Notes: generated from the sequence alone by a model not told the origin. DNA of 64,000 nt from Candidatus Iainarchaeum sp. (GCA_017610175.1 JAFCCO010000005.1:284-64283), one strand, 5' to 3'. Shown: positions 2,492 through 21,017, numbered from the stretch's first letter. Program-made: numbers and translations.

Positions 2492-2496
2492 TTCTA

Positions 2497-3411: not shown

Positions 3412-3416
3412 ACCAA

Positions 3417-3476: not shown

Positions 3477-3477
3477 G

Positions 3478-3493
3478 AGAAAGCCTTTTAAAT
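3478..3493 (+). promoter_or_regulatory. Archaeal BRE/TATA promoter of the leu leader and leu-ilv operon
   Basis: Purine-rich AGAAAGC followed by TTTTAAAT (3486-3493), about 40 nt before the leader ATG. Confidence 0.6.
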
Positions 3494-3532
3494 CCCTTAA
3501 GCACTATAGATAATAGCAATACAGTGGTATTT

Positions 3533-3619
3533 ATGAAAACAGCAGGTAGTTTTGGAACAAAGTCTACGAATTACTTACTTAGCCTGCTCGTTTTGCTTCT
3601 GGTTTTGCTGTTAGGATAA
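3533..3619 (+). CDS. Leucine/valine-rich leader peptide of the leu-ilv operon (28 aa)
   Basis: MKTAGSFGTKSTNYLLSLLVLLLVLLLG*; 10 Leu and 2 Val in the last 14 codons; ends 77 nt before leuA. Confidence 0.85.
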   Translation: MKTAGSFGTKSTNYLLSLLVLLLVLLLG

Positions 3620-3688
3620 GCACTTCCTAGCTAAAGCAAATTTTGGAAGTGCGGTTTTAAAACTGGAGAAGTCATTAGATTCGAGGTG
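3604..3688 (+). promoter_or_regulatory. Putative attenuator: alternative RNA hairpins downstream of the Leu leader
   Basis: Stem A TTTGCT-GTTAGGA/TCCTAGC-AGCAAA (3604-3640) competes with stem B GCACTTCC/GGAAGTGC (3620-3652), which is followed by GGTTTT; CACTTC can also pair with the leuA RBS GAGGTG (3683-3688). Confidence 0.65.
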
Positions 3689-3696
3689 TTTTGGAA

Positions 3697-5214
3697 ATGA
3701 GAAAAATAAGAGTTTTTGATACAACGCTCAGAGATGGGGAGCAGAGCCCTGGTGCGACTCTTACGCATCGCGAGAAAATAATGATTGCAAGGCAGCTTGA
3801 AAAGCTTGGTGTTGATGTAATCGAGGCGGGTTTTCCTATCGCGAGCGATGACGATTTCAAGGCGGTTAAGGAGATTGCGGAAACCGTTAAGGGGCTGAGC
3901 GTGTGCGGTCTTGCCCGCGCAATGCCAAAGGACATTGACAGGGCCTGGGAGGCCATTCAGAACGCCAAAAAACCAAGGATACACACTTTTATGTCGACAA
4001 GCGACGTGCATTTAAAGCACCAATTCAAAAAAACCAGGGATGAGGCCCTTGAAATGAGTGTTGAGGCTGTAAAACTTGCCTGTTCCTACTGTAAGGATGT
4101 GGAGTTTTCGCCAATGGATGCCACGCGCACCGACCCCAAATTCCTTTTCCAGGTGCTTGAAAAAGTGATTGAAGCCGGTGCGGGGACGGTTAACATTCCT
4201 GACACTGTTGGGTATGCCCAGCCAGTGGAATTCGGCAAGCTCATTAAGAACATTTGCGATAACGTTCCGGGCATTGAGAATGCGGTAGTTAGCGTGCACT
4301 GCCACAACGATTTGGGGCTTGCGGTCGCAAACAGCCTTGAGGCGGTGCGCAACGGCGCCGGCCAGGTTGAGTGCACTGTAAATGGCATTGGCGAGCGTGC
4401 AGGAAATGCGTCCCTTGAAGAAATCGCGATGAACCTGCATACCCGCAGTGAATTTTTTGGGGTCTGCACAAGCATTAACCTTAAGGAAATTTATCCTTCA
4501 TCGCTGATGGTCAGCAACCTTACAGGGATGGCGGTTCAGCGCAACAAGGCAATTGTTGGCAAAAACGCATTTGCGCACGAGGCCGGAATTCACCAGCACG
4601 GTGTTCTTGCAAACTCACAAACTTATGAGATAATGGACCCTGAGATGATTGGCAATAAAAGCCAGTTTGTGCTCGGCAAGCATTCCGGCAAGCACGCAAC
4701 AAAGAAGGTTCTCAAGGACATGGGTTTTGATCTCTCAGACGACGAGCTCAAACAGGTAACCAACAGGATAAAACAGCTTGCAGACAAGCAGAAAACCGTG
4801 CTCGATGAAGACATTGTTGCAATTGCAGGAGATGTCACACAGCAGCTTAAGAAAGAGGAAAAGCGAATTGTTCTTGAGGAATTTCGCATTGAAACAGGCA
4901 ACAAGGTAAAGCCCACTGCAATCCTCAAGCTTATAATCGACGGAAAGAAAGTTGAGGCAAAGGGAACAGGGGTTGGGCCTGTTGACGCAATAACCAACGC
5001 ACTGCAATCAGTTTCACCCACAAAGGTTTCGCTCCACGAATACCACCTCAACGCAATAACAGGCGGAACAGACGCACTTGCGGACGTTGAGGTAAAAATA
5101 GTCAACGGGTCGGGAAAGGTCCACAATGCAGAGGCAATCAATGAGGATGTACTAACGGCAAGCACGAACGCCATCATAAAGGGCATAAACAAGGCGCTTG
5201 CCAACAAAAAGTAG
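3697..5214 (+). CDS. leuA: 2-isopropylmalate synthase
   Basis: DTTLRDGEQSPG, EAGFP, HCHNDLGLA, GIGERAGN and HEAGIHQ motifs, C-terminal regulatory domain; GAGGTG RBS before ATG 3697. Confidence 0.93.
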   Translation: MRKIRVFDTTLRDGEQSPGATLTHREKIMIARQLEKLGVDVIEAGFPIASDDDFKAVKEIAETVKGLSVCGLARAMPKDIDRAWEAIQNAKKPRIHTFMSTSDVHLKHQFKKTRDEALEMSVEAVKLACSYCKDVEFSPMDATRTDPKFLFQVLEKVIEAGAGTVNIPDTVGYAQPVEFGKLIKNICDNVPGIENAVVSVHCHNDLGLAVANSLEAVRNGAGQVECTVNGIGERAGNASLEEIAMNLHTRSEFFGVCTSINLKEIYPSSLMVSNLTGMAVQRNKAIVGKNAFAHEAGIHQHGVLANSQTYEIMDPEMIGNKSQFVLGKHSGKHATKKVLKDMGFDLSDDELKQVTNRIKQLADKQKTVLDEDIVAIAGDVTQQLKKEEKRIVLEEFRIETGNKVKPTAILKLIIDGKKVEAKGTGVGPVDAITNALQSVSPTKVSLHEYHLNAITGGTDALADVEVKIVNGSGKVHNAEAINEDVLTASTNAIIKGINKALANKK

Positions 5215-5223
5215 GTGAATGCA

Positions 5224-6921
5224 ATGCAGGGAAGTGAAGCAATAATAAAAACCCTTATTGAGGAAAAGGCGGAGCACGTGTTCGGTTTTCCGGGCGGAGC
5301 GGTAATGCCAATCTACGACAAGTTTCTTGACTACGAAGATGAGTTAAGGCACATTCTTGTAAGGCACGAGCAGGCGGCGGCGCACGCAGCAGACGGCTAT
5401 GCAAAGATTTCGGGAAAGGCAGGAGTCTGCCTTGCAACCTCCGGGCCAGGGGCAACAAACCTTGTGACCGGCATAATGACCGCTTACATGGATTCGGTTC
5501 CGCTCATTGCACTCGCCGGAAACGTTCCAACTTCGCTTCTTGGAAACGACGCTTTCCAGGAGTCCGACATGATGGGAATCACGATGCCAATTACAAAGCA
5601 CAATTTCCAAATTCGCGACCCGAACACAATCCGCTCAAAGATCAGGAAGGCATTCAAGATTGCACAGCACGGCAGGCCAGGTCCTGTCTATATTGACATT
5701 CCAAAGGACTCGCAGGTAAAGGAGGTAACAAAGGACATTAACAACGTGCTAATTGCAGGATTCAAGCCGGTTCTTAAGGGCCACCCTGTTCAGATAAAAA
5801 AGGCGGCCGAAATGATTCTCAAGGCAGAGTGCCCGGTAATTCTTGCAGGCGGCGGAATTCTTATCTCAAAGGCTTACGCTGAACTTGGCGAGCTTGCGGA
5901 GGGAATGAGCATTCCTGTAACCACCACTTTCATGGGGAAAAGCTGTTTTCCCGAAACACATCCCCTTTGCCTCGGAGTTATTGGGATGCACGGCAGAAAG
6001 GTTGCAAACTACGCAATCGGAAATGCTGATCTAATAATCAATGTTGGCTGCAGGTTCAGTGACAGGATAACGGGTGACCTCAAGACATTTGCAAGTGGCG
6101 CAAAAATAATCCACATAGACATTGACAGCGCCGAAATAGGCAAGAACGTAAAAATCGACCTTCCGATTGTGGGTGATGCAAAGCAGGTTCTTTCCGAGCT
6201 TGTTAAGATCATAAAATTAAAGGCCCCGAAGAGCAGGGGGTGGGCTGAAAAAATCAAGAAATTTATCAAGGACTGCGACTGCGCGATTGACGTGAAGGGA
6301 AGCCCGCTTGATCCCAGAAAAATAATGTTCGAGCTCAACAGAATTCTTGGAAAAGAGGACATTCTTTCAACCGGAACCGGGCAGCACCAGATGTTTGCCA
6401 TGCACTTTGTTAAAAGGGACGTGCCGCACACGTTCATTTCAAGCGGGGGGGCGGGCACAATGGGATACGGTTTTCCCGCGGCAATTGGCGCAAAGGTTGC
6501 AAAGCCGGATGCACAGGTTTTTGACCTTGATGGGGACGGCTCTTTTGCAATGGTTATTCAGGAGCTTGCAACCTGCAAGGAAGAAAATATAAAGGTTATT
6601 CCCGTAATTATGAACAACGCATACCTTGGAATGGTCAGGCAGTGGATGGAGCTATTCGTTGACAAAAGATACAGTGGAGTGCACCTCAAAAGGACCCCTG
6701 ACTTTGCAAAGGTGGCAGAAGCCTACGGGCTTGAGGGAATAACGGTTGAGCGTGACTCAGAGCTTCGCGAGGCGTTTGAACGCGCTTACAAGGCGGACTC
6801 AACGGTCTTAATTGATGTGATTACACAGGAAGAGGCAAACATCCTCCCAATGTTTTCGGCGGGGGCAAACAATGTTGACATGTTTGGTGGATGCATTCAA
6901 AACAAGGGAGAACTGTTTTAG
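5224..6921 (+). CDS. ilvB: Acetolactate synthase large subunit
   Basis: FGFPGG, RHEQAAAHAADGY, TSGPGATN, GQHQM and GDGSF ThDP motifs. Confidence 0.96.
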   Translation: MQGSEAIIKTLIEEKAEHVFGFPGGAVMPIYDKFLDYEDELRHILVRHEQAAAHAADGYAKISGKAGVCLATSGPGATNLVTGIMTAYMDSVPLIALAGNVPTSLLGNDAFQESDMMGITMPITKHNFQIRDPNTIRSKIRKAFKIAQHGRPGPVYIDIPKDSQVKEVTKDINNVLIAGFKPVLKGHPVQIKKAAEMILKAECPVILAGGGILISKAYAELGELAEGMSIPVTTTFMGKSCFPETHPLCLGVIGMHGRKVANYAIGNADLIINVGCRFSDRITGDLKTFASGAKIIHIDIDSAEIGKNVKIDLPIVGDAKQVLSELVKIIKLKAPKSRGWAEKIKKFIKDCDCAIDVKGSPLDPRKIMFELNRILGKEDILSTGTGQHQMFAMHFVKRDVPHTFISSGGAGTMGYGFPAAIGAKVAKPDAQVFDLDGDGSFAMVIQELATCKEENIKVIPVIMNNAYLGMVRQWMELFVDKRYSGVHLKRTPDFAKVAEAYGLEGITVERDSELREAFERAYKADSTVLIDVITQEEANILPMFSAGANNVDMFGGCIQNKGELF

Positions 6922-6934
6922 GGAAGGGGTTTGA

Positions 6935-7447
6935 ATGGATGAATCAAGGGAAATTGGCGGAAAAACAAAGAAACACATAATCGGAATTATGGTTGACGAC
7001 CACCCGGGCGTAATGTCAAAGCTTTCCTCGCTTTTCGCAAGGCGCGGATTCAACATTGACAGCATTGTTGTCGGAAAAAGCGCCCACCCAGGAATGGCAC
7101 ACATTGTGATAAGCGTTGTTGCCAACGACGAAATCATTGAACAGCTTGAAAAACAGGTAAACAAGCTAATTGACGTTGCAAAGATTACAGACCTTGCGCC
7201 AGCGCAAAGCGTGATAAGGGAACACTGCCTTGTGAAAGTGGCCTCAACGGAAAAATCAAGGGAGGACATAATTAACATCGCAAAAATCCACAAGGCAAAG
7301 GTCCTTGACATTAACCACTCAAGCATAATTGTTGAAATAGTCGGCAGGCCAGCCAAAATAGAAAATTTTATTGAGCTAATGGGAAAGTACGGAATTAAGG
7401 AAGTAAGCAGAACAGGAATTAATGCCCTGCAAAGGGGAACAAAATAA
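6935..7447 (+). CDS. ilvH: Acetolactate synthase small (regulatory) subunit
   Basis: PGVMSK..LFARRGFNIDSI ACT domain, KQVNKLIDV and SRTG motifs. Confidence 0.94.
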   Translation: MDESREIGGKTKKHIIGIMVDDHPGVMSKLSSLFARRGFNIDSIVVGKSAHPGMAHIVISVVANDEIIEQLEKQVNKLIDVAKITDLAPAQSVIREHCLVKVASTEKSREDIINIAKIHKAKVLDINHSSIIVEIVGRPAKIENFIELMGKYGIKEVSRTGINALQRGTK

Positions 7448-7512
7448 AAACAGTTATCAGGTAATTCGGTAAGAATTGCCCAACTTCAAATTGCAAACGG
7501 AGGGAGTAAAAC

Positions 7513-8496
7513 ATGAAAATATATCACGAAAACGACGCATCAATCGATGCACTTAAGGACAAAACAATTGCCATAATCGGCTACGGAAACCAGGGAAGGC
7601 CTCAGGCACTGTGCCTCAGGGATTCCGGCTTGAAAGTAATCGTCGGCTCAATAAAGGACGCATCCTTTGACAAGGCCGTTGAAGACGGTTTTGAAACATT
7701 TCCAATAGCGGAAGCCGCGGAAAAAGCGGACCTTGTCCAGATTCTTCTGCCTGACGAGTTCCAGGGAGTGGTTTACGCAAGCGAAATCGCGCCGCACATG
7801 AAGGAAGGCAAGATTCTCTGCTGCTCACACGGCTTTAGCATTGTGTTCAAGGGAATTGTGCCCCCCGAAAACGTTGACGTAATAATGGCAGCACCAAAGA
7901 GCCCGGGCAGCGAGGAAAGAAAGGAATACGTGCGCGGATTCGGAGTGCCGGGCCTCATAGCCGTTTACAAGGACGCAAGCGGAAAGGCAAGGGATTATGC
8001 ACTTGCATACGCAAAAGGAATGGGCTACACAAGAGCAGGGGTAATTGAATGCACGTTTCCCCAGGAAACATACTCGGACCTGTTTGGGGAACAGACAGTT
8101 CTATGCGGCGGAGTAACAGAGCTCATGAGAGCTGGCTTTGAAACACTCACCGAAGCAGGCTACCCGCCTGAAATCGCATACTTTGAATGCATCAACGAGC
8201 TCAAGCTCATCGTGGACATGATTTACGAGGGCGGATTCGAATTGATGTGGAAGCGCGTAAGCAACACCGCAGAATACGGCGGAAGGACACGCGGCCCAAA
8301 GGTAATTGGCAAGGAATCAAAGGAAGCAATGAAGCAGCTTCTCAAAGACATTGAGTCAGGCGCTTTTGCAAAAGAGTGGGTTGACGAGGTCAAAGCAGGA
8401 ATGCCAAACCTCAACAAGCTCCGCGAAGAGCAGGCAAAGGAACCGGTCGAAACAATCGGCAAGGAAATCAGAGCCCTCTTTGAAAAAAAGGAATAA
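7513..8496 (+). CDS. ilvC: Ketol-acid reductoisomerase
   Basis: [31 protein letters not shown] and SNTAEYG motifs. Confidence 0.97.
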
Positions 8497-8503
8497 GCAA
8501 AGC

Positions 8504-10132
8504 ATGAAACCGGATGAAATAAAGCGGCTTCCGGCCGCTGAATCACTGCTTTACGCAGACGGGCTTAAGGAGAACGAGATTGGCAAACCGTTTATTGCGG
8601 TTGCCAACTCATTCAATGAGATAACACCCGGCCACATCCACCTCAACAAGCTTGTTGAGCACGTAAAGCGCGGAATCCGGGAAGTGGGGGCAATTCCCTT
8701 CGAATTCAACACAATTGGGGTGTGCGACGGCATAGCAATGGGGCACGAAGGAATGAAGTACTCTCTTCCAAGCCGTGAAACCATTGCAGACAGCATTGAA
8801 GAAATGGTCAAAGCGCACTCTGTGTTTGAGGGAATTGTTTTCATCGCCGCATGTGACAAGAACATTCCTGGACACCTCAAGGCAGCAGCCAGGCTCAATC
8901 TTCCATCAGTATTTGTTTCAGCAGGGCCAATGGCTCCGGGCGAATACGACGGCAAAAAAATCGGGGTAAAGGCCGCTTTTGAGGCAAAGGCACAGGTTGA
9001 ACTTGGAAAGATTTCAAAGGAAGAATACAAAAAAATTGTATGCAGCGCGTGCCCGGGTGCGGGAACGTGCTCAGGGCTTTATACAGCAAACAGCATGGCT
9101 TGCGTAACCGAAGCATTAGGGCTTTCGCTCCCAATGTGCGCGACCGCAGCCGCACTCTCCGAGGACAAGAACAAAATTGCATACGAAAGCGGAAAACTCA
9201 TAGTTAAACTTGTGAAGCAGGGAATTCTTGCAAGGGACATTATGACCGAGCAGGCTTTTGAAAACGCCCTCCGCCTTGACATGGCAATAGGGGCTTCCAC
9301 AAACACAATGCTTCACGTGCCGGACATTGCAAAAGAGGCGGGCTTTGACTTTAGGCTTGAGCGCATTAATGAACTAAGCGAGGAAACCCCAACCCTTGTG
9401 AAGCTTGATCCTTCATCGGAATTCTTCATGTCCGACCTTCATGAGGCGGGAGGAATTCCGGCGGTAATGGCCGAACTCAAACCAAAGGGCCTTATTCAGG
9501 ACACTGCAACAGTTCAAGGAAGCCTTTTTGACAGGCTTGCAAACGCTGAACTCAAGGACAATAAGGTTATTCGTGCGATTGAAAATCCTTACGACAAAAG
9601 CGGCGGAATTGCAATCCTGTACGGAAACCTTGCGGAACAAGGCTCTGTAATTAAAACAAGCGGAATCTCCCCAAAATTCCCAAAGGTTTTTGAGGGAAAA
9701 GCCGTTGCATTTGATTCAGAGGATGAGGCAAACGAGTTCATCAACTCGGGAAAGGTTGAGAAGGGCTCAGTTCTTGTAATTAGATACGAGGGGCCTGTTG
9801 GAGGCCCGGGAATGCGCGAAATGCTTTACCCAACGGCGGGAATTTCAGGCCTTGGCCTTGACACCAATGTGGCTCTGCTGACAGACGGGAGATTTTCAGG
9901 AGCAACCCACGGCGCTTCAATCGGGCACATTGCGCCTGAAGCGGCAGTTGGCGGAAACATTGCACTGGTTGAAAACGGGGACGCAATCAAAATTGATTTG
10001 GACAAGCGAAGAATAGACCTTCTCGTTGATGAGGCGAAGCTTGCAAAAAGGCGTGAAAAATGGGGCAAGGACTTCAGGCTCAAAGAGCTTCCTGAAGGGG
10101 TTTTAAAGAATTTCCGACAAAGATTTCTATAA
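8504..10132 (+). CDS. ilvD: Dihydroxy-acid dehydratase
   Basis: [34 protein letters not shown] and TDGRFSG motifs; true ATG at 8504. Confidence 0.96.
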
Positions 10133-10142
10133 GGTGAATCAA

Positions 10143-11405
10143 ATGAAACAGACAATAACCGAGAAGATTCTTGCCGCACACTGTGGCAGAGACAGCGTAA
10201 GCCCAGGCGAGCTCATAGAGGCAAACGTAGACCTCTGCTTTGCAAACGATATCACAGCCCCAATTTCAATAAAGGCATTCAGGGAAGCGGGCATTAAAGA
10301 GGTCTTTGACAAGGAAAAAGTTCTCCTGATTCCCGACCATTTCACCCCAAACAAGGACATTAAGGCAGCAGAGCAGGTTAAATTGATGCGCGAGTTTGCA
10401 AAGGAGCAGGAACTTGCAAACTTCTTTGATGTGGGCAGGGTTGGAATCGAACACGTTTTCATCCACGAACAGGGTTTCTCCGTTCCAGGGCAGGTAATTG
10501 TTGGGGCGGACTCACACACATGCACTTACGGAGCACTCGGAGCATTCTCAACAGGAGTTGGCTCAACAGATGTTGCTGCGGCAATGGCCCTTGGAAAGCT
10601 CTGGCTTAAGGTTCCGGAGTCAATGCAGTTCAATTACACAGGAAAGCTCTCAAAATATGTTTCAGGAAAGGACCTTATTCTCTTCACCATCGGCCAGATG
10701 GGGGTGGGCGGTGCGCTCTACAATGCAATGGAGTTCAGGGGCTCCACAATCAGGTCCCTTTCAATGGACAGCAGGTTCAGCATGTGCAATATGGCAATTG
10801 AGGCCGGTGCAAAGAACGGAATAATTGAACCGGACGGCCGCACGCTTTCATATGTTAAGCAGCACTCCAAAAAGAAGTTCAAAACCTACAAGTCTGACAA
10901 GGGCGCAAACTACAGCGACGAGTTTTTCTGGGACGCGTCAGTCATTGAGCCACAGGTGGCGTACCCGCACCTTCCTGAGAACACAAAACCAGTTTCAGAG
11001 GCTTCAGGAATTGAAATTCAGCAAAGTGTAATTGGAAGCTGCACAAACGGGCGAATTGAGGACATGCGCGTTGCCGCAAAAATATTCAAGGGAAAGAAGC
11101 TTGCACCCGGAACAAGGTGTGTAATCCTTCCGGGTTCACAGGAAGTTTATCTTGATTGCATAAAAAAGGGGTTTGTGGAGATATTTGTCAAGGCAGGCTG
11201 TTCCTTTTCAACCCCGACCTGCGGGCCATGCCTTGGAGGGCACATGGGTGTTCTTGCGGCTGGAGAAAAGGCAATCAGCACCACAAACAGAAACTTTGTG
11301 GGCCGAATGGGCCACGTAAAGAGCGAAGTTTATCTCTCCAACCCGGCTGTTGCGGCAGCTTCCGCAATTGCGGGAAAGATAGTGCACCCGGAGGAAATAA
11401 AATGA
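10143..11405 (+). CDS. leuC: 3-isopropylmalate dehydratase large subunit
   Basis: [25 protein letters not shown] and STTNRNF motifs. Confidence 0.95.
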
Positions 11406-11896
11406 AGCTCAAGGGAAAAGCATGGTCGTTTAAGGACAACATTGACACAGATGTAATTATTCCCGCAAGGCACCTGGTCACATCAGACCCTGACGAGCTT
11501 GCAGGGTATTGTATGGAGGACATAGATCCGGACTTTGCAAAGAAAATTTCCAAAGGGGACATTATTGTTGCAGGAAAGAATTTTGGATGCGGTTCAAGCA
11601 GGGAACACGCCCCTATTGCAATAAAGCACTTGGGCATTTCATGCGTTATCGCGGAATCTTTTGCAAGAATCTTCTACAGAAACAGCATAAACATGGGCCT
11701 TCCAATTTTTGAGTGTCCCGAAGCCGTTAAGAAAATAAGGGCAGGGGACAAGCTTGAGGTTGATGCCGAAACAGGGATTATCACAAACGTTTCAAAAAAC
11801 GAAACTTACAAGGCACAGGCAATGCCTGAGTTCATAAGAAAAATTATAAAACTTGGCGGTCTAATGGAGTACGTAAAGCAGGAAGTGAAAAAATAA
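11402..11896 (+). CDS. leuD: 3-isopropylmalate dehydratase small subunit
   Basis: [19 protein letters not shown] and FARIFYRN motifs; ATGA overlap with leuC. Confidence 0.95.
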
Positions 11897-12966
11897 TGGC
11901 CAAGAAATTTAAGATAGCGGTTCTTCCGGGTGACGGAATCGGCGCAGAGATAATGCCTCCCGCAGTTGAGGTTCTCAAAAAAGTTGGCGAAATGTTTTCG
12001 GTTGAGTTTGAATTCACCGAAGCAAAGATTGGATGGGCTGCTTACCCTGAATTTAAGACATGCCTGCCCAAAGAGACACTTGATGTTTGCAAAAACTCGG
12101 ACGTAATCCTTTTTGGGGCAATTGGGGATCCAAAAGCGGACAAGCTTCCGCCGGAGGAAAGGCCTGAGCGGGCGGCGCTTCTCCCCCTTAGAAAGGAGTT
12201 TGACCTTTACGCAAACCTTCGCCCTGCGATGGTGTTCAAATCACTTGCAAATGCATCCCCGCTCAAATCCGAAATAATTGGCGAGGGCTTTGATGTGCTT
12301 GTGGTGCGCGAGCTCACAAGCGGAATTTACTTTGGAGAACCAAAGCAGCTTTCGGAAAGTGAGGGCTTTGATACCATGCGTTACAAAAAAGAGGAAGTTG
12401 AGCGAATTGCAAAGGTTGCTTTCGAAGCCGCAATGAAGCGTTCAAAAAAAGTGCACAGCATTGACAAGTCCAACGTTCTCCAGTCAATGGTCCTTTGGAG
12501 GGAAACTGTCGGAAGCGTTGCAAAGAATTATCCTAAAGTGGAGCTTGAAAACCTTTACGTTGACAATGCGGCAATGCAGCTTGTCAAAAACCCAAAGCAG
12601 TTTGATGTGATTCTTGCGGGAAACCTGTTTGGGGACATCCTTAGCGACGAGGCCGCAATGCTCACCGGAAGCATTGGCATGCTCCCGTCGGCTTCACTCA
12701 ACGAATCAGGCTTTGGCCTTTACGAGCCTGTTCACGGTTCTGCGCCCGATATTGCTGGAAAGAACATTGCAAACCCGATTGCGCAAATTCTTTCAGCCGC
12801 AATGTTATGCAAGTACTCTTTCGGCCTTAACGAGGCGCATGACGCAATCTTTAAGGCGGTTGAATCGGTTCTTGACAAGGGCATTAGAACAGTGGACATA
12901 GCTGCGGGCAATGAGTCTGTTGGAACAAAGGAAATGGGCCAGGCAATTCTCAAAGAATTAGGTTGA
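11896..12966 (+). CDS. leuB: 3-isopropylmalate dehydrogenase
   Basis: PGDGIG, LYANLRP, DKSNVL, NLFGDILSD and EPVHGSAPDIAG motifs. Confidence 0.96.
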   Translation: MAKKFKIAVLPGDGIGAEIMPPAVEVLKKVGEMFSVEFEFTEAKIGWAAYPEFKTCLPKETLDVCKNSDVILFGAIGDPKADKLPPEERPERAALLPLRKEFDLYANLRPAMVFKSLANASPLKSEIIGEGFDVLVVRELTSGIYFGEPKQLSESEGFDTMRYKKEEVERIAKVAFEAAMKRSKKVHSIDKSNVLQSMVLWRETVGSVAKNYPKVELENLYVDNAAMQLVKNPKQFDVILAGNLFGDILSDEAAMLTGSIGMLPSASLNESGFGLYEPVHGSAPDIAGKNIANPIAQILSAAMLCKYSFGLNEAHDAIFKAVESVLDKGIRTVDIAAGNESVGTKEMGQAILKELG

Positions 12967-14025
12967 TTTTTTAGGCCTTGCCCTTTTAGCAATCTTTTTT
13001 CCGCTTCCCTCTGAAATATGTGCCTTTACAAACTTGCGAATCGTCATCTTTCCGCGGGTTGTCTTGAACTTGGTGTTAAAATGTGTGCTGTCAGCTGCAC
13101 TTCTTTTGTGCGCAAACCTCAGCTGCTTTTCGTGGAACACCTGTGGGAAATTTGACTGCCAGCCCGGCTTATGTTTTACTCTGCCTTTTGTGCCCCTTCC
13201 TCTTTTTGTCGGGTCAAAGAGAACAAGTGCGGTTTCGTTTCCAAATGCCTGCTGTGAAATTCTTTTGATTGGGGCCTTTTCCGCTCTTGGAACCTCAAGC
13301 GTTTTAGCCCTTCCAAATGCCTTTTTGAATCTTTCAAATGATTTTGGGACTTCCCTGTAACTGGCGGCGTCAACAAACAAAACAATCGGGTTTGCCCGCT
13401 TCATTATTGAGCTGAATCTTCTTCTAACCGCGCGCGGATCTGTAAACCAGTTTGTAAAATATTCCCTTAGCCCAGGTTCCCCAACCGAAGCCATTTTGTA
13501 ATCGTCAACTGCAAAAACAAAGGAGTCAATTTTTCCCTCTTTCAGTGCCTTGCCTGCAACCTTAAGTGCGGCAGCCTCCCTTAATTGCCTGACAACATCC
13601 CTGGACACCCTTCCAGTCCTTGCCTCTTCATTTGCCTTAGTCCACTCGTGCTGTTTCTTTAATTCCTCAACAGCCCACTTTCTCTTCTTTTTTCCAATTA
13701 CCTGCGCTGAAATTCCCTCTATCGCAGGCTTGTAGATTGAGCCTGTCCGCGCATTGCATATCACAAGCACAGGCCTTTTGTGGTTCCTGCTCAGCGCATT
13801 TGCCGCAAGGTTAACACGCCTTGCTTCTACCGCTGAAAATTTTGCCTGGGCCTCAATTTCCCTTAGTTTAAGTGAGGGGTCAGGTACATTGAATTCGTTT
13901 GGGTTTAGTTTGCGGTCACGCCATATTAGCGTATTTCTTTCCTTTCTGTCTGTAAAAACTAGTCCCGGATTTTTCACTCTTTTTTTTCTCTTTTTGCTTT
14001 GCCTCGGTTTTCTCATCGAACTCAC
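12958..14025 (-). CDS. Basic hypothetical protein (355 aa), translationally coupled to purM
   Basis: Long ORF with K/R-rich N- and C-termini; start overlaps the purM stop. Confidence 0.7.
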   Translation of the reverse strand: MSSMRKPRQSKKRKKRVKNPGLVFTDRKERNTLIWRDRKLNPNEFNVPDPSLKLREIEAQAKFSAVEARRVNLAANALSRNHKRPVLVICNARTGSIYKPAIEGISAQVIGKKKRKWAVEELKKQHEWTKANEEARTGRVSRDVVRQLREAAALKVAGKALKEGKIDSFVFAVDDYKMASVGEPGLREYFTNWFTDPRAVRRRFSSIMKRANPIVLFVDAASYREVPKSFERFKKAFGRAKTLEVPRAEKAPIKRISQQAFGNETALVLFDPTKRGRGTKGRVKHKPGWQSNFPQVFHEKQLRFAHKRSAADSTHFNTKFKTTRGKMTIRKFVKAHISEGSGKKIAKRARPKKST

Positions 14026-15050
14026 TCGATTTTGACGCCTTGGCCCTTTACAGCCTTTCCGATTGCCCAGGCTTCCTCGCCGAGCTCTGTCGCTTTCTTC
14101 AGAACTGCGTTTGCATCGCTTTCACTTACAATCAGAACCATTCCCGAACCCATGTTAAATGTCCTGAACATGTCCTGTTCGGGCACTTCTCCCTTTTCCT
14201 GAATCAGCTTGAATATTTTCTGTGTCCTTAGCTTTTCCTTTTCAATCGCAACACCTATTCCGTCCGGCAAGACTCTTTTGATGTTGTCGAACAAGCCGCC
14301 TCCGGTAATATGCGCAATTCCTTTCAGCTCAAACTCTTTCATCAATGAATTAACCGTTTTGCTGTAAGCCCTGTGCGGTTCAAGCAATGCTTCCCCGATA
14401 CTTTGCTCCATTCCGTCCGGCTTGTCGTTCACATCAAATCCCGCAACCTCAAAGAGCACATTTCTTGCAAGGCTGAATCCGTTTGTGTGAAGCCCCGAAC
14501 TCTTTAATGAAATCAGTACGTTTCCTTCTTCAATCTTTGACCCGTCAACCATTTTGCCCTTTTCCGCAATTCCGGTAATTGCTCCGACAATATCTGTTTC
14601 GTTTTCACAGTATACTCCAGGCATTTCAGCGGTCTCGCCCGCAATCAGTGAAACTCCTGCTTCCTTGCAGGCCCCAGCCATTCCCTTCACAATCTGCTCG
14701 ATTTTTGCGGGCTCAAGCTTGCTGCTTGCAACATAGTCCACAAAAAACCAGGGTTCTGCTCCGCAGCATGCGATGTCGTTGCATGAGTGGTTCACAATGT
14801 CTTTTCCAACCGAATCCCATTTGCTCATTTTGGAGGCAACATTTGTTTTTGTTCCCACCCCGTCAATGCTTGTAATCAGAACAGGATTTTCAAACTCCTT
14901 TAGCTTTGCCGCATCAATGCATCCGCCGAATGCTCCAACGTCAAGCAGCACGTCTTTGGTAAAGGTGCTTTTAACATGTCCCTTAATGCGCTTTACGGCT
15001 TCGTTTCCGGCATCAATGTCCACTCCCGCATCCTTGTAAGTTACAGCCAT
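14022..15050 (-). CDS. purM: Phosphoribosylformylglycinamidine cyclo-ligase
   Basis: YKDAGVDI, DGVGTK, GETAEMPG, SSGLHTNG, HITGGG and TFNMG motifs. Confidence 0.97.
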   Translation of the reverse strand: MAVTYKDAGVDIDAGNEAVKRIKGHVKSTFTKDVLLDVGAFGGCIDAAKLKEFENPVLITSIDGVGTKTNVASKMSKWDSVGKDIVNHSCNDIACCGAEPWFFVDYVASSKLEPAKIEQIVKGMAGACKEAGVSLIAGETAEMPGVYCENETDIVGAITGIAEKGKMVDGSKIEEGNVLISLKSSGLHTNGFSLARNVLFEVAGFDVNDKPDGMEQSIGEALLEPHRAYSKTVNSLMKEFELKGIAHITGGGLFDNIKRVLPDGIGVAIEKEKLRTQKIFKLIQEKGEVPEQDMFRTFNMGSGMVLIVSESDANAVLKKATELGEEAWAIGKAVKGQGVKIE

Positions 15051-15156
15051 TTTAATCATATGAATTAAAACAGGGAACCTTTAAATTGCTTTTCGCGCCG
15101 CTTTATTTCCTACAGAAGTATTATAAACTTAGGACTGCAAATTATTTGTGATTAGA

Positions 15157-15606
15157 ATGCCTTTTTGGAAAAAGAGAGCAAAACCCGCCGCTGACAAAAC
15201 TGCAGCCGCTAAAAAGCCCGCACCCAAACCTGTTGAACCGGCGCCTGTGAAAAAGCGTGCAAAAGTATCTTCAGCTGAAGCGAGTGCTGCTCAACAGAAA
15301 AGAAGGGCGGAGAGTATAGAGGTTGCAAAGCTTAGTGCAAAAGTGCCTGTTTTTGCGGCAGAATGCAAGAGAATCGGTGTTTCCCCTGCACAGGCATTCC
15401 TGAAAGCCCACAATATAATTCTTACCGCAAAGGGAAAGGGTTGGGACAAGCTCAGGGCCCAAATTGCCGACAAGCTTGCGGTGGAAATGATTTCTCTTCC
15501 CGAGGAAAAAGCGCATATGGCCCGCCAAATCGAGGCGCAGATTATTTCGAATTATATTACCCCTCTAATTAAGAAAGGCCTTTTAACCAAGGCAATGCTG
15601 GGCTAA
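15157..15606 (+). CDS. Hypothetical protein with basic Lys/Ala/Pro-rich N-terminus
   Basis: MPFWKKRAKPAADK...; TTATAAA TATA-like box upstream. Confidence 0.65.
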   Translation: MPFWKKRAKPAADKTAAAKKPAPKPVEPAPVKKRAKVSSAEASAAQQKRRAESIEVAKLSAKVPVFAAECKRIGVSPAQAFLKAHNIILTAKGKGWDKLRAQIADKLAVEMISLPEEKAHMARQIEAQIISNYITPLIKKGLLTKAMLG

Positions 15607-15632
15607 ACCGCTTTTTAAAGCCCCGAACTCTG

Positions 15633-15649
15633 CGAAAAGTATTTAAAGA
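15633..15649 (+). promoter_or_regulatory. Archaeal BRE/TATA promoter of the aromatic leader and operon
   Basis: CGAAAAGTA followed by TTTAAAGA (15642-15649); predicted start site falls at about the leader ATG (leaderless mRNA). Confidence 0.65.
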
Positions 15650-15671
15650 ACCTTGCCCTATAATTCACTAT

Positions 15672-15776
15672 ATGGAATGTGCAAACGCATTTATTGGTGC
15701 TGAAACTTTTCTTTTCAAAGTTTGCGCAGCCGTGGGCAAGTACTTTGCTTATTGGTATTTTTATTTTTTTGAGTAG
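15672..15776 (+). CDS. Phe/Tyr/Trp-rich leader peptide of the aromatic amino acid operon (34 aa)
   Basis: MECANAFIGAETFLFKVCAAVGKYFAYWYFYFFE*; 9 of 10 consecutive codons aromatic (4 Tyr, 4 Phe, 1 Trp); ends 104 nt before tal. Confidence 0.88.
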   Translation: MECANAFIGAETFLFKVCAAVGKYFAYWYFYFFE

Positions 15777-15831
15777 GCACCAGGCTACTCTCTGTTTTTA
15801 GCTTGGTTGCCAGGACTAACAAACGGAGAGT
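15771..15831 (+). promoter_or_regulatory. Putative attenuator: alternative RNA hairpins downstream of the aromatic leader
   Basis: GAGTAG/CTACTC (15771-15790); GCACCAGGCTA/TAGCTTGGTTGC (15777-15810); about 20-bp stem ACTCTCTGTTT...AAACGGAGAGT (15787-15831); the stems overlap one another. Confidence 0.7.
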
Positions 15832-15880
15832 TCACACTATAAAAATTTGATAGGGAAAAAAAGTTGGAGCGTGAAAAAAA

Positions 15881-16537
15881 ATGGAAATTTGGGTTGACAG
15901 TGCGGATATTGGTGAAGTAAAAAGAGTTCATGAACTTGGAATAGTTGACGGGGCAACAACAAACCCTTCCCTTTTTGCAAAGCAGAAAAGCAAGGATTTC
16001 AAGGGGGTTGTGAAGCAGATTGCTGACATAGTTAACGGGCCGGTTTCGGCAGAGGTTGTCGCAACAGATTTTGAGGGAATGGTGAGGCAGGCTGAAATTG
16101 TCTCAAAAATCCACAAAAACGTTGTAGTGAAAATTCCATGCATTCCTGACGGGCTCAAAGCCGTAAAGTACTGCAGTGACAACGGAATCAAGACAAATTA
16201 TACCCTGACCTTTTCCGCAAACCAAATTCTTCTTGCTGCAAAAGCGGGAGCAACCTACACAAATGTATTCATTGGCAGGTTGGATGACGCAGGGCACAGC
16301 GGAATGGAGGTTGTAAGGGAAGCAATGCAGATTCTGAACAACTACAAGTTTGAAACAAAACTAATTGCGGCCTCAACAAGGCACCCTTTGCACATTAAGG
16401 AAGCGGCTTTGCTTGGATGCCATGTGGCAACAGTTCCGCCCGCATTAATTGAAAAGCTAATAAAGCACCCGCTAACCGACGCAGGGCTCAAGCAGTTCCT
16501 TGCAGACTGGGAGAAATGCGGCTGCAAAATTGAGTGA
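15881..16537 (+). CDS. tal: Transaldolase (short TalC/Fsa family)
   Basis: GATTNPSL, SAEV, VKIP and FIGRLDD motifs (Glu/Phe pattern of transaldolase rather than Fsa). Confidence 0.92.
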   Translation: MEIWVDSADIGEVKRVHELGIVDGATTNPSLFAKQKSKDFKGVVKQIADIVNGPVSAEVVATDFEGMVRQAEIVSKIHKNVVVKIPCIPDGLKAVKYCSDNGIKTNYTLTFSANQILLAAKAGATYTNVFIGRLDDAGHSGMEVVREAMQILNNYKFETKLIAASTRHPLHIKEAALLGCHVATVPPALIEKLIKHPLTDAGLKQFLADWEKCGCKIE

Positions 16538-16547
16538 GTGATTTAAA

Positions 16548-17621
16548 ATGGGGCTTGCTGAGAAAAGAAAAAAGATAGATTCAATTGACGAGAAGGTTCT
16601 TAACCTGCTTAGCCAGCGGGCTAAAGTTGCACAGGAAGTTGCAAAGGAAAAGGGCAAGAGCGGGACACAAATTTATGTGCCCGAGCGGGAAAGGTCGCTT
16701 CTCGAAAACCTTGTGAAGAAAAACAAGGGTCCGTTCAGCGGCAAGGCAATTGATTCAATTTACCGCGCAATAATTTCCGAGTGCCGTGCACTGGAAAGTT
16801 CAATGAAGGTTTGTTATCTTGGCCCTGCAACAACATTCACGCACATGGCTGCGATAAAGAACTTTGGAAACTCAACCGAATTCATTCCAAAGGACAGCAT
16901 CTCAGACGTATTTCACAATGTGGAAAAAGGGGTTGCAGATTACGGTGTTGTCCCGGTTGAAAACAGCACAGAGGGCACAATTAACCACACGCTCGATATG
17001 TTCATTGATTCGGAGCTAAACATTGTGGCAGAAATCGTTCTTGACATAAAGCACTGCCTGCTTTCAAACCACAAGCTTAAGGAGATTAAGAAGGTGTACT
17101 CAAGGCCCACGGCCCTTGCGCAGTGCCGAAACTGGCTTGCGCAGAACCTGCCAAAGGCGGAACTTCTTGAGTCAAGCAGCACCGCAAAGGCAGCGGAATC
17201 AGTTACCCTGTACCACAGCAGTGCGGCAATTTCCTCAGAGCTTGCGGCAAAGGAATTCGGGCTTGACATTCTTGCAAGAAACATTCAGGACAACCCATAC
17301 AATGCCACAAGGTTCTTTGTGGTTGGAAAAACCAAGCCAAAGAAGGCAAACAAGAACAAGACAAGCATAATGTTCTCAGTAAAGCACGAGCCCGGCTCAC
17401 TTTTCAGGGCGCTAAAGTCTTTTTCGGACGGGAAAGTAAACATGACCAAAATTGAGTCAAGGCCAACCCGCAGGAAAGGCTGGGAAGTCGTGTTCTTCAT
17501 AGATTTTGAGGGGCACTTAGAGGATGACACAGCCAAAAAAGTGCTCGCAGACATGCAGAAGAACTGCTTATTTGTAAAAATACTTGGCTCATACCCTATG
17601 GAGGTAAGTGTCAGTGAGTAA
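16548..17621 (+). CDS. pheA: Chorismate mutase / prephenate dehydratase (P-protein)
   Basis: N-terminal AroQ domain, [11 protein letters not shown] and ACT-domain KIESRP motifs. Confidence 0.95.
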
Positions 17622-18429
17622 AAGCATTGCCGAGCTTGGAGAAATTTCCAAAACGGTTCGCCGTGAAATCCTTAAAATGATTACAAAGGCGGGAAGCGGC
17701 CATCCGGGCGGCAGCCTAAGCTCAACCGATTTGGTTGTAGCGCTTTACTTCTCCAAGATGAAGCACGATTCAGGCAATCCAACAGACCCTGAGAGGGACA
17801 AGTTTGTTCTAAGCAAGGGGCATGCGTGCCCGCTTTTGTACGCGGTGCTTGCGGAGGCGGGATACTTTCCCAAAGAAGAGCTTTCATCGCTTAGAAAACT
17901 CGGTTCAATTCTGCAGGGGCACCCCGACAGGAACAAGGTTCCGGGAATTGAGGCTTCAACAGGAAGCCTTGGCCAGGGGCTAAGCATTGCAAATGGAATA
18001 GCGCTTGCCGACAGGCTTGATAAAAGAAACTCAAGAACCTACTGCCTTCTTGGCTGCGGTGAATCGCAGGAAGGGCAGGTTTGGGAGGCCGCAATGGCTG
18101 CGGCACACTACAAGCTTGATAACCTTTGCGCAATAATTGACAAAAACAACCTGCAAATAGACGGCAAAACATGCGAGGTAATGAACATCGAGCCTGTTGC
18201 TGAGAAATGGATGGCCTTTGGCTGGAATGTTATTGAAATTGACGGCCACAACTTTGGCGAAATACTCAAGGCATTTGATGAGTCCAAAAAAGTCAAGGGA
18301 AAGCCCACGATGATTGTCGCAAAAACCGTTAAGGGAAAGGGCGTTTCGTTCATGGAAAACGTCTGCGGTTTCCACGGGAAGGCATTAACCGAGGAAGAGC
18401 TTGCAAAGGCAGTGGAGGAACTCAAATGA
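17614..18429 (+). CDS. tkt: Transketolase N-terminal subunit
   Basis: [25 protein letters not shown] and EGQVWEA motifs (GCGE in place of GDGE). Confidence 0.94.
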
Positions 18430-19370
18430 CCGACGCGATTGCAACAAGGGAAGCCTACGGAAACACTCTTGCGGAACTTGGCGAAAAAAACAGGGCCATT
18501 GTTGTGCTCGACGCCGACTTGAGCAAGAGCACAAAGTCCGCAACGTTTGCGGCAAAATTCCCCGAACGATTCTTTGATGTGGGGGTGGCCGAGGCGAACA
18601 TGGTTGGAATTGCGGCAGGTTTTGCCATTGCGGGAAAAATTCCTTTCGCAAGCAGTTTTGCGGTTTTCGCAACCGGTCGCGTATTTGACCAGATTAGGGT
18701 AAGCGTTGCATACAGCAACCTAAACGTGAAAATTGTGGGTTCCCACGCCGGCCTTGCGACAGGGGAAGACGGAGCAACACACCAGGCAACAGAGGACATT
18801 GCATTAATGCGCTCTCTTCCAAACATGTCCGTGATTTCACCGGCTGACGGGGTTGAAACAAGGCTTGCGGTTGAATCAATGGCTGCAAACCCAGGTCCTG
18901 TTTACCTGCGCACCTCCCGTTTGAAAACTCCCGCAATATTTGATGAAAGTTACAATTTTAAGATTGGAAAAGGGACAATAATAGGGGACGGTTCGGATGT
19001 TTCAATTATTGCAACAGGAATAATGGTTTCAAAGGCAGTTGAGGCCGCTGAATTGTTAAAGAAAAACGGCATAAGTGCACGCCTGATTAATATGGCAAGC
19101 ATTAAGCCGCTTGATGAACAGCTTGTTCTCAAAGCCGCAAAGGAAACTGCAGGGATTGTTTCCTGCGAAGACCACAGCGTGATTGGGGGGCTTGGCTCTG
19201 CAATAGCAGAAACCATTTCCGAAAAGCATCCTGCAAAACTTCATCGCATAGGCCTTAATGATAAATTCGGTGAGTCGGGAAAACCTGACGAACTTTACAA
19301 AAAATTTTCAATGGATGCGGCTGCAATAGCCGCATCTGCAAAAAATTTGCTGAACAAAACCGGGGAGTGA
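18426..19370 (+). CDS. tkt: Transketolase C-terminal subunit
   Basis: [20 protein letters not shown] and [10 protein letters not shown] motifs. Confidence 0.94.
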
Positions 19371-19375
19371 TGACA

Positions 19376-20389
19376 ATGATTATAGTTCTAGGCAAAAAAG
19401 CAGACGACAAAGCAATAGAGGAACTAACAGAGGAAATTGAAAACAAGGGACTCAAGGTTTTTATCTCAAGGGGGGAGCAGAAGATAATTGTTGGCGCAAT
19501 GGGTGACGAAAGGCTTCTCAATATTGATCACCTGAAAGCGCTTCCATTTGTTGAAAAGGTAATGCCGATTACAGCACTCTACAAGCTGGCAAGCCGTGAA
19601 TTCCACCCAGAGGACACAATCATTAAGGTAAACGGCTGTGAAATTGGCGGGGACAACCTCACAATTATTGCAGGGCCCTGTGCAATCGAGAGCGAAAAGC
19701 AAATGCTTGAAACAGCGCACGCAGTAAAAGATGCCGGAGCATCAATTCTTCGCGGTTCGGCATTCAAGCCAAGAACCTCTCCCTACGATTTCCAGGGGCT
19801 TGCGGAAGAGGGGCTGAAAATTCTGAAAAAGGCAAAGGAAGAAACCGGTCTCCCCATTGAAACAGAGGTTATGGACACAAGGCATGTTGAGCTTGTTGCA
19901 AAATACGTTGACATTCTTCGCGTTGGCGCAAGGAACATGCAGAACTTTGACCTTCTTAAGGAAGTTGGGCGAACGAACAAGCCTGTAATTCTCAAAAACG
20001 GTGTTGCATCCACCATGAAGGAATTCCTCATGGCTGCAGAATACATTATGAGCGAGGGAAACGAGAACGTTATTCTCTGCAACAGGGGAATCAGGTGCTA
20101 TGAACCAGAGCTTCGCTTTCCGATTCTCAGCGGGCTAACCAACCTAATCAAGCAAAAGACCCACCTCCCGGTAATTGTTGACCCAAGCCACAGCACAGGC
20201 AACAAAAGCCTTGTTGTTCCGGTTTCAAAGGCGGCAATTGCAGAGGGAGCCGACGGAATAATTGTCGAGGTCCACAACTGCCCGGAGGAAGCAAAGTGCG
20301 ATGCCGCACAGCAGCTTACCCCTCCCGAATTCAGGGAAATGATGGTGGAACTGAGAAAAATCGGCGAAGCGGTTGGAAAAAAGCTGTGA
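19376..20389 (+). CDS. aroF: DAHP synthase, type I-beta with N-terminal regulatory domain
   Basis: [27 protein letters not shown] and DPSH motifs. Confidence 0.95.
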
Positions 20390-20393
20390 TTGC

Positions 20394-21008
20394 ATGAAAG
20401 TATATGTTTGCAGGCACGGAGAAACAGTGCTTAACAAGAAGAGGTTGAGGCAGGGGATCCTTGATTCGCCCCTGACTGTCCTGGGTGTTAAGCAGGTTGA
20501 GGAAATGGCCAGTGCACTTTCGGGCATTTCTCCTGCTGCAATTTATTCTTCAGATCTTGGGCGGGCGGTTGCAACCGCCGAGATAATTGCAAAGCCGCAC
20601 AATCTTAATCCAATTCTCTTCGACAAAATACGCGAAATAAGCGGAGGTGCTTTGGAGGGACTCAGCTTTGAGCAGTCAAACAGCAAATACTTCAAGGATG
20701 TTGAGGCGCGAAACAGGGACAAGTTCAATGTGCCGTTTCCGGGCGGGGAAAGTTACGCTGATGTGGAAGTTCGTGTAAAGTCTTTTATTGAAATGCTGTA
20801 TGAAAAGCATTCTGATGAAGAGGTCATTATTGTTTGCCATCAGGCTGTCGGGCGAATGCTTGCTGTACTGCTTGCAGACTTCCCTGCAGAAACAGTGCTT
20901 AAGACGCAGTTTTTGCACAATATGGTTTATGAAATAGATTCAACCAAAGAGAATAAGGTAAGTTACTTGCTTGATGGCAAGAAACATGAGGGCTTGCTTT
21001 ACAGATAG
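20394..21008 (+). CDS. Histidine phosphatase / phosphoglycerate mutase family protein
   Basis: RHGET, SSDLGRA, PGGES and VCH motifs. Confidence 0.88.
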
Positions 21009-21017
21009 GAGATTTGA

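Follow-up and report, generated by a model that had tools for sequence, protein, structure and literature searches.

In the 64,000-nucleotide stretch of Candidatus Iainarchaeum sp. DNA analysed here (the window, by which the whole stretch is meant; positions 284-64283 of contig C6, in a genome of 1.24 Mb comprising 34 contigs), the leu-ilv operon and the aro operon are each preceded by a short open reading frame (ORF) that ends in a run of codons for the amino acids of its own pathway. Both elements are probably cis-acting ribosome-mediated attenuators of the leader-peptide type, residing in an archaeon. The proposed sensor, namely an ORF at the 5' end of the transcript with a cognate run reaching to the second-last codon and with its stop codon within a hairpin, is well supported. 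From the comparison of related genomes, the leaders are judged to be real, non-random and under selection, and to lie downstream of archaeal promoters in three or more archaeal lineages.

An earlier note on this DNA had described one layout for both operons (promoter, short ORF, cognate run, one non-cognate codon, stop, hairpins, and a spacer of 77 or 104 nucleotides (nt) before the first gene) and had identified the operons as leu-ilv and aro. Each element of this layout was found in its place, and the identities were confirmed with NCBIfam. The main features, in window coordinates, are the following.

3486..3493, + strand: TATA-like box TTTTAAAT of the leu-ilv leader transcript, 46 nt 5' of the leader ATG

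3533..3619, + strand: leader ORF 1, MKTAGSFGTKSTNYLLSLLVLLLVLLLG, the proposed Leu/Val sensor (ATG at 3533, 28 codons, TAA at 3617-3619)

3697..12966, + strand: operon leuA-ilvB-ilvN-ilvC-ilvD-leuC-leuD-leuB (NCBIfam; the best match of all eight genes lies above the curated cut-off)

15640..15648, + strand: TATA-like box TATTTAAAG, about 28-31 nt 5' of the ATG of leader 2, with the same box in relatives

15672..15776, + strand: leader ORF 2, MECANAFIGAETFLFKVCAAVGKYFAYWYFYFFE, the proposed Phe/Tyr/Trp sensor (ATG at 15672, 34 codons, TAG at 15774-15776)

15881..25342, + strand: operon tal(fsa)-pheA(CM-PDT)-tktN-tktC-aroF(DAHP synthase)-phosphatase-like gene-aroA-aroK-aroD-aroE-aroC (NCBIfam)

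Leucine or valine makes up 12 of the 14 final residues of leader 1, which closes with a single non-cognate codon, GGA, before the stop. GCAC follows the stop, and a spacer of 77 nt leads to the leuA ATG (3697). A Shine-Dalgarno (SD)-like AGTGG lies ahead of the leader ATG, at 3523-3527, and the TATA-like box together with an (A/G)GTGA-like element 5' of the ATG recurs, as judged by eye, in relatives of the same family. Leader 2 is built in the same way. Its C-terminal end reads ...KYFAYWYFYFFE, with Phe, Tyr or Trp at nine of the 12 final residues and a single GAG codon before the stop; GCAC again follows, and the spacer to the tal ATG (15881) amounts to 104 nt. The short distance between the TATA-like box and the ATG points to a leaderless or near-leaderless aro transcript.

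The match between peptide composition and pathway, which had been held to be beyond chance, was compared with 6330 small ORF candidates of this genome, mostly outside long ORFs, each scored for enrichment of one residue class within 12 residues. The aro leader ranked fourth (binomial p 5.9e-7) and the leu leader fifth (7.3e-7), which together with the non-cognate nature of the other high-ranking ORFs bears out that claim. The ORFs ranked near both leaders mostly start with GTG or TTG. Eight other high-ranking run ORFs were rejected as noise, the genes that follow them being non-cognate (transketolase, MCM, TFB, an MFS/spermidine-synthase fusion, STT3 and three unassigned proteins). Only the leu and aro leaders and a trp leader on another contig match the downstream pathway in this genome.

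The conservation of the leu leader was followed through the phylum, represented in the collection by 215 species genomes of 0.5-1.5 Mb belonging to one order only. The upstream regions of the 48 leuA loci were examined, leuA being present in 48 of the 215 genomes, and a leader was counted when an ORF of 12-60 codons with at least seven Leu, Val or Ile among its last 14 residues lay within 450 nt upstream of leuA. Such a Leu/Val-run leader stands at 45 of the 48 loci, and at 42 when at least eight such residues are required. The three loci lacking it are L014, in which leuA lies directly 3' of ilvE, L126, a second and interrupted leuA-like copy, and L131 (46% identity). When applied to control upstream regions, the same test found none in 17 aro and none in 16 trpE regions; the leuA regions read on the opposite strand gave 6/48 positives at the threshold of seven and 0/48 at eight. 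The leader also occurs outside the phylum, at eight clear and one doubtful of 12 published leuA loci among relatives of the L039 genome and at four of five among relatives of the L063 genome, two unpublished genomes being excluded from these counts.

The 45 leu leaders are 21-40 residues long (median 26) and lie 77-266 nt from leuA. All six leucine codons are used (TTG 76, CTT 73, CTG 58, TTA 54, CTA 40, CTC 21). Across the last 12 codons of 11 related leader pairs, 58 codons are changed; 24 of these changes are synonymous and a further 13 exchange one cognate residue for another. The remaining changes are overestimated, because one pair is of unequal length and was probably aligned out of register. 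The N-terminal halves of the same pairs diverge freely. These data agree with the expectation of the earlier note that leaders would be kept in frame and composition while the codons of the run vary synonymously, and their position is kept as well. A TATA-like word occurs no more than 75 nt upstream of the leader ATG in 41 of the 45 leaders, and in 17 of these 41 the distance from TATA to ATG is 27-31 nt, which fits leaderless mRNAs. The covariance model of the post-stop hairpin (see below) also matches two loci that begin with ilvB, and their leaders are rich in Val and Ala (…VLLPVAVLVVLVVALVA, …YVALLVAVVAVLAA); the composition of the leader therefore appears to follow the operon. A separate observation concerns the enzyme itself. 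In family f11 and the L063 group (L017, L123, L125, L127-L142, L209-L213), leuA matches only residues 1-375 of the query, in frames of about 370-420 amino acids, so that the C-terminal regulatory domain, which in bacterial LeuA enzymes mediates feedback by leucine, is seemingly absent from these copies. The Leu leader is present in all of them.

Both leaders end in alternative RNA hairpins, referred to as P1, P2 and P3 in their order along the transcript. Those of the window, with the neighbouring sequence elements, are as follows.

3610..3631, + strand: leu P1, GTTAGGA[TAAGCACT]TCCTAGC, 3610-3616 pairing with 3625-3631 over 7 base pairs (bp), with the stop codon in the loop; -9.1 kcal/mol, z -1.3

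3620..3652, + strand: leu P2, GCACTTCC (3620-3627) pairing with GGAAGTGC (3645-3652); -12.8 kcal/mol, z -2.9; starts directly after the stop and excludes P1

3655..3658, + strand: T4 tract, 2 nt after leu P2 and followed by AAAA; has the geometry of an intrinsic terminator with P2

3667..3679, + strand: motif AGAAGTCATTAGA (consensus CAGAAGTCnTTAGA), just 5' of the leuA SD GAGGTG (3683-3688) and kept in relatives

15771..15790, + strand: aro P1, GAGTAG[GCACCAGG]CTACTC, with the last codon and the stop in its 5' arm; -9.5 kcal/mol, z -2.0; followed by TCTG and then T5

15776..15811, + strand: aro P2, 15776-15787 pairing with 15799-15811; -17.2 kcal/mol, z -3.1; excludes P1 and P3

15787..15831, + strand: aro P3, 15787-15806 pairing with 15810-15831; -22.4 kcal/mol, z -5.3, with 0/200 shuffles as low; the most stable of the three

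The hairpins containing the stop codon that had been proposed earlier exist in both leaders, the leu stem having 7 bp and not the 5 bp assigned to it, and the overlapping downstream hairpins are likewise present in both. GCAC, which had been taken for a shared motif, did not hold up as such. These four bases open a hairpin arm and co-vary with their partner in relatives (GCAT/ATGC, ACAC/GTGT, GCGC/GCGC). In aro the three serial hairpins are mutually exclusive. In leu, an extended P1 that uses the codons GTT TTG CTG reaches -13.9 kcal/mol against -12.8 for P2, which makes the two folds nearly iso-energetic; a T4 run (3641-3644) lies in the P2 loop. A structure beginning between -3 and +4 nt from the end of the stop codon, with a minimum free energy of -10 kcal/mol or lower in the 52 nt after the stop, was found in 39 of the 45 leu leaders and in every one of the 9 aro leaders; among ordinary gene ends of this genome the proportion was 33 of 300. 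Hairpins equivalent to aro P2 start at the stop in all nine aro leaders.

Because MAFFT alignments of the hairpin region slipped register, the conservation of leu P2 was assessed with a covariance model. In 14 rows and eight pairs, 97.2% of the cells are paired and a compensatory change occurs in six of the eight pairs, the alignment coming from a model of 5 sequences that favours pairing and consisting of related rows, one of them probably spurious. No shuffle out of 500 scored as high, and slid controls gave 37-67% paired cells. The covarying stem sought by the earlier note is thus present in leu P2. P1 was counted by a stem search in each sequence, since the alignment column of its 3' arm differs by one from variant to variant. 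In this search, covering 16 of 22 leaders examined, a stem of 7-10 bp was found in 12, and in 10 its 3' arm lies directly after the stop, inside the 5' arm of P2. The arms differ in a paired manner (GTTAGGA/TCCTAGC, GCTAGGG/TCCTGGC, GCTGGGA/TCCTGGC, TGCTAGAG/CTCTAGCA, CTTCTTGCTT/AGGCAAGAGG). A P3 is also possible in a second family, where a downstream motif, CAGAAGTC, is complementary to the P2 loop together with the beginning of the 3' arm of P2 (86% of cells paired). The CAGAAGTCnTTAGA motif lies 10-16 nt 3' of the leu hairpin, before the ribosome-binding site of leuA, and is kept even where the loop holds no complementary partner; the copy in the window has no obvious pairing partner. A similar element, YTAGRAAA, precedes the SD in aro leaders.

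The aro leaders are fewer. In relatives in which the start of the operon is visible, an ORF of 30-38 codons ending in a Phe/Tyr/Trp run was found in six of eight loci. The gene tal was found in 46 of the 215 genomes of the phylum, and 30 loci were returned, nine with pheA after tal and 21 without it within the locus. With at least six Phe, Tyr or Trp among the last 14 residues as the test, an aromatic leader precedes tal in eight of the nine tal-pheA loci (L148 lacks one), as against one of the 21 without pheA (L166, a doubtful case with a TTG start). In L020 the aromatic leader stands directly 5' of pheA, which brings the total to nine distinct aromatic leaders in at least five families. This distribution, in which the leaders track pheA and not tal, bears on the possibility that the products of the small ORFs are functional micro-proteins of hydrophobic or aromatic character, such as membrane peptides, and that the ORFs stand before the operons incidentally or for co-expression. 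The Leu/Val tail does resemble a short hydrophobic helix, and a few N-terminal residues (M-x-C-A) are shared by close aro relatives. Nevertheless, such an explanation is very unlikely in view of three different compositions, each matching the pathway downstream, hydrophobic tails of just about 10-15 residues behind freely diverging N-terminal halves, and a stop codon that is embedded in conserved RNA structure in the proportions given above.

The third system concerns tryptophan. In this genome trpE lies outside the window, on contig C33, and its locus (L070, 408-739) contains, in this order, a TATA box, a mini-ORF, a tRNA-Trp gene and trpE. Its elements, in L070 coordinates, are given below.

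442 (ATG) to 477 (TAA): trp mini-ORF, MTSKGDSLWLQ and stop, containing the invariant CTT TGG

open to the TAG at 558-560: +1 frame ending …QPWLWAWFTP and stop

582-655: tRNA-Trp(CCA) gene, then a T/A-rich hairpin, with trpE at 739

The arrangement recurs across the phylum. An ATG mini-ORF with CTT TGG and with a stop 2-7 codons after the Trp codon is present in at least 23 of 35 trpE upstream regions of the phylum, and three more were recognised by eye. From CTT TGG, the +1 frame ends with at least two Trp among its last 10 residues in 15 of the 23; ahead of CTT TGG, it lacks any start codon (ATG, GTG or TTG) in 14 of them. This frame is partly kept at the protein level with third-position variation (…DL(T/A/I)SL…, …FIKFFSIYSWHW). 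A tRNA-Trp between leader and trpE was detected with ARAGORN in 8 of 16 regions and in 14 of 19 regions, and three more, intron-bearing copies were seen by eye. A long intron, of 40-88 nt according to ARAGORN, follows the anticodon of the tRNA-Trp 5' of trpE in L078, L081, L084, L184, L188 and L190, and these introns hold T/A-rich hairpins like the ones found 3' of the tRNA in other genomes. The predicted trp leader is the third match of leader codons to pathway. The sequence CUU-UGA in bacterial prfB is a +1 frameshift site, and a hungry-codon +1 frameshift at CUU-UGG of the trp leader may be put forward as a speculation.

With all three leaders in view, it may be asked whether conservation acts on a non-coding RNA or on an element bound by protein, the frames being a by-product of pyrimidine-rich sequence. 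Conserved hairpins and the high nucleotide conservation of certain parts (the CAGAAGTC motif, CTTTGG of the trp leader) would suit such an element, which we nonetheless regard as highly improbable. Frame, ATG and stop position are kept while codons vary synonymously, the spacing of TGG in the trp leader is codon-periodic, and composition tracks the pathway. Moreover, a search of the 64-kb window with Rfam 15 at gathering scores, covering the T-box, riboswitches and curated bacterial leader families, gave no match. As to the other pathways whose upstream regions the earlier note had suggested, the trp leader was found and the his operon offers no place for one. In the his cluster (hisG, contig C13: 96748-98074, - strand) the first gene lies 38 nt from a divergent gene and hisG lies 50 nt from the preceding gene. 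Attenuation is therefore not used for every amino-acid operon of the genome. Homoserine dehydrogenase was not found in this genome, which is 90% complete.

The assignment of the sequence to an archaeon is essential for the meaning of these leaders. The genome (completeness 90%, contamination 0.18%) encodes two TBP genes, the TBP family matching only the 4 archaeal controls among 14 control genomes, as well as TFB, MCM and archaeal STT3. Within the window, at 52453-54720, a 755-amino-acid open frame combines an asparagine synthase (AsnB-type) domain with an archaeal diphthine-ammonia ligase (Dph6) domain; it could be a fusion or two adjacent genes, and its start codon is uncertain. No small-subunit ribosomal RNA was found in the 90% complete genome, so that the taxonomic assignment is based on marker proteins and on how the records of relatives are titled. 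The metagenome-assembled genomes with the most similar leuA carry the depositors' labels uncultured archaeon, Candidatus Iainarchaeum, Micrarchaeota and Woesearchaeota (DPANN-type), and the same leu locus is common to 45 genomes of the phylum. Given TBP, TFB, MCM, Dph6, the low contamination and the locus in relatives, the contig is archaeal and not a bacterial contaminant, which settles the question of taxonomy that had been raised.

The leuA gene itself is of the bacterial type. After DPANN-type archaea, its next-nearest relatives are Syntrophorhabdus/Desulfobacteraceae-like bacteria at about 50-56% identity (about 47-56% with others included), which suggests that the leu operon was acquired from bacteria, though the leader was not found in those bacteria. 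The leaders might then be relics of bacterial attenuators, brought in with horizontally acquired operons of the bacterial type and no longer functional, and the bacterial score of leuA with its bacterial neighbours behind the archaeal relatives would be in keeping with that. However, none of 25 bacterial neighbour loci has a run-type leader adjoining leuA; two marginal ORFs (7-8 of 14 residues) were noticed there, one overlapping the leuA start and the other ending about 290 nt upstream. In addition, the leaders are fitted to archaeal TATA spacing, and their maintenance across the phylum and two other groups, with covarying structure, speaks for purifying selection. A relic origin without function is thus hardly credible. 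A bolder proposal in the opposite direction holds that attenuation is native to and widespread in DPANN-type archaea, works with archaeal RNA polymerase and arose independently of its bacterial counterparts. The Trp version would then be a new design, in which a promoter-proximal mini-ORF (M..D-S/L-L-W) may undergo a +1 shift at the invariant CUU-UGG into a conserved frame that lacks its own start codon, ends in WxW(xW) and extends up to the co-transcribed tRNA-Trp in front of trpE, so that the cell would read its supply of Trp-tRNA on the precursor of this tRNA. We consider this proposal tentative and on the whole doubtful.

Returning to ribosome-mediated attenuation, the arrangement of both leaders suggests the following course of events. 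A short transcript-proximal ORF with a run for the end products of its operon would be translated, and the position of the ribosome would pick the hairpin. At low supply of the cognate charged tRNA the ribosome would halt within the run, and at high supply it would stand at or past the stop. The final codons and the stop codon would serve as one arm and the loop of P1, and the sequence after the stop would be shared by P1 and the stronger P2, which in aro would compete with the still stronger P3. A ribosome reaching the end of the ORF would melt P1 and cover the 5' arm of P2; one held earlier would leave both free. The choice of hairpin would set the expression of the downstream operon. Translation of the leader ORFs, stalling of the ribosome and the read-out are what we infer from this arrangement.

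The nature of the read-out may be viewed in more than one way. Premature termination or pausing at U-tracts flanking P2, with P2 and U4 as the terminator and P1 as the anti-terminator in leu, is given somewhat less than an even chance. It would fit the leu leader of the window and its family. A ribosome on the stop would also mask the 5' arm of P2, so this wiring would need a kinetic action of P1 and a timely clearing of that arm by the terminating ribosome. The classical 1:2 / 2:3 / 3:4 wiring, in which P2 would be the ON structure while the ribosome is stalled upstream and OFF would result when the ribosome masks the 5' arm of P2, is possible, if rather doubtful; OFF would act on translation, on processing or on factor-dependent (aCPSF1/FttA-type) termination. 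This second wiring would fit the logic in all ribosome states as well as the triple hairpin of aro, whose energy order resembles that of the E. coli trp attenuator. No effector can be recognised for it, since aro P3 has no U-tract. Of the termination wirings considered (aro P1 with its U-run, leu P2 with its U-run, and a ribosome pushing the polymerase through the U-run of the loop), none is asserted here, as each runs counter to the logic expected for one ribosome state or more if no assumptions on kinetics are made.

Several observations weigh against attenuation, and above all against termination as its read-out. Within the window's family, 7 of 10 leu leaders have a run of at least four T (here T4-8) no more than 8 nt after the first hairpin; such runs were found in 2 of 11 of f23, in 2 of 18 of f11 and in none of six others. 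The U-tract of leu P2 is thus lineage-specific, being present in 11/45 overall and in 4/35 outside the window's family; in f11, a run of five or more T lies within 25 nt after the hairpin in 13 of 18. The sole T-run of aro is the T5 at 15795-15799, between P1 and the 3' arm of P2, and no U-tract follows P3 on its 3' side. A consensus scan of 2400-16600 found aro P1 with T5 as the only terminator-like site on the + strand, the total of sites there being below the shuffled expectation. Intrinsic termination in archaea is generally held to need only oligo-U and no hairpin, so a hairpin switch may not control it, and to our knowledge hairpin-dependent termination has not been established for archaeal RNA polymerase. 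SD-like words precede the leader ATG in only 11 of 45 leu leaders (by script). Individual P1 stems are only weakly better than shuffles, P3 of the second family shows a compensatory change in none of nine pairs, and the lack of room for a His leader, the masking of P2 by a ribosome on the stop and the limits of the P2 alignment mentioned above point in the same direction. Equilibrium folding of 10 leaders with ribosome masks gave no consistent switch in the accessibility of SD or AUG, and our commitment is for this reason limited to ribosome-mediated attenuation. In the attenuation proposed by the earlier note, the anatomy of the sensor is borne out, and termination as the read-out is not.

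The same sensor might also act without hairpin-dependent termination, the read-out being translational or post-transcriptional, with folding that would expose or hide a ribosome-binding site, a processing site or a factor-loading site. In keeping with this, 34 of 45 leu leaders have no U-tract beside P2 and none follows aro P3, CAGAAGTCnTTAGA is conserved just 5' of the SD, and in the aro leader of L147 a hairpin abuts the SD, the stop-start distance being only 42 nt. There is, moreover, a bacterial precedent in the mycobacterial leaderless poly-cysteine small ORFs, which act on translation (10.1101/834739). On the other side stand the masked folds just mentioned, spacers that reach 266 nt, frequently rich in A and seemingly without structure, which part the hairpins from leuA in many genomes, and the lack of covariation in P3. 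Such a read-out is accordingly rated as rather unlikely.

The proposed attenuators resemble the bacterial ones (trpL, leuL, pheL, ilvL/ivbL, hisL, thrL; the Yanofsky model) in having a short upstream ORF rich in product codons and a stop codon between serial, mutually exclusive hairpins whose stability rises from first to last, as the three aro energies listed above do. Mixed Phe/Tyr/Trp and Leu/Val specificities recall pheL and ivbL. They differ from the bacterial attenuators in the archaeal host, the TBP/TFB-type promoters, the many leaderless-like transcripts, the run that reaches the second-last codon and a final hairpin lacking a U-tract in aro and in most leu lineages, and the nearest bacterial leuA loci have no such leaders. 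Leader-peptide attenuators are described in general terms in the introduction of 10.1101/834739. The part of the same work that deals with the mycobacterial poly-cysteine leaderless small ORFs shows a 3' tract of cognate codons upstream of a biosynthetic operon and a ribosome sensing charged tRNA, as proposed here; in those bacterial ORFs, unlike in the present leaders, the Cys tract pairs with the SD region of the next gene and the read-out is translational, whereas no consistent pairing of run and SD was found here. The ilvBNC attenuator of Corynebacterium glutamicum, reported in PMC11857589, shares with them a leader peptide and three alternative hairpins before a branched-chain operon, but it is bacterial and has a terminator. 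In archaea, TrpY of Methanothermobacter and Tar of Thermococcus regulate the same pathways, yet they are promoter DNA-binding proteins and not cis-acting RNA/ribosome devices such as those proposed here; according to the Thermococcus Tar paper, little is known in Archaea beyond the repressor TrpY (PMC6737238). No description of leader-peptide attenuation in archaea was found in the main texts of the open-access full-text literature.

Some neighbouring features complete the picture. The gene ilvE sits just 5' of the leu leader region. Beside purM, at 12958-14025 on the - strand, a 355-amino-acid protein has no NCBIfam match, and neither has a 152-amino-acid Lys/Ala/Pro-rich protein (15148-15606) immediately 5' of the aro leader. 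A tRNA scan of the 64-kb window found no tRNA.

Summarizing, attenuation is the textbook regulatory use of coupled transcription and translation and has so far been regarded as a bacterial device. Should it operate in archaea, it would provide a natural, sequence-defined handle on how closely ribosomes trail archaeal RNA polymerase, on whether nascent hairpins can affect pausing or termination by a Pol II-like enzyme, and on the interplay of factor-dependent termination (aCPSF1/FttA) with RNA structure. The natural variants gathered number more than 60, drawn from several families and from two groups beyond the phylum; some have U-tracts and some lack them, and they form a ready mutational series. 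If the proposed mechanism is true, the reduced DPANN genomes, with few transcription factors, would control costly anabolic operons by protein-free cis devices.

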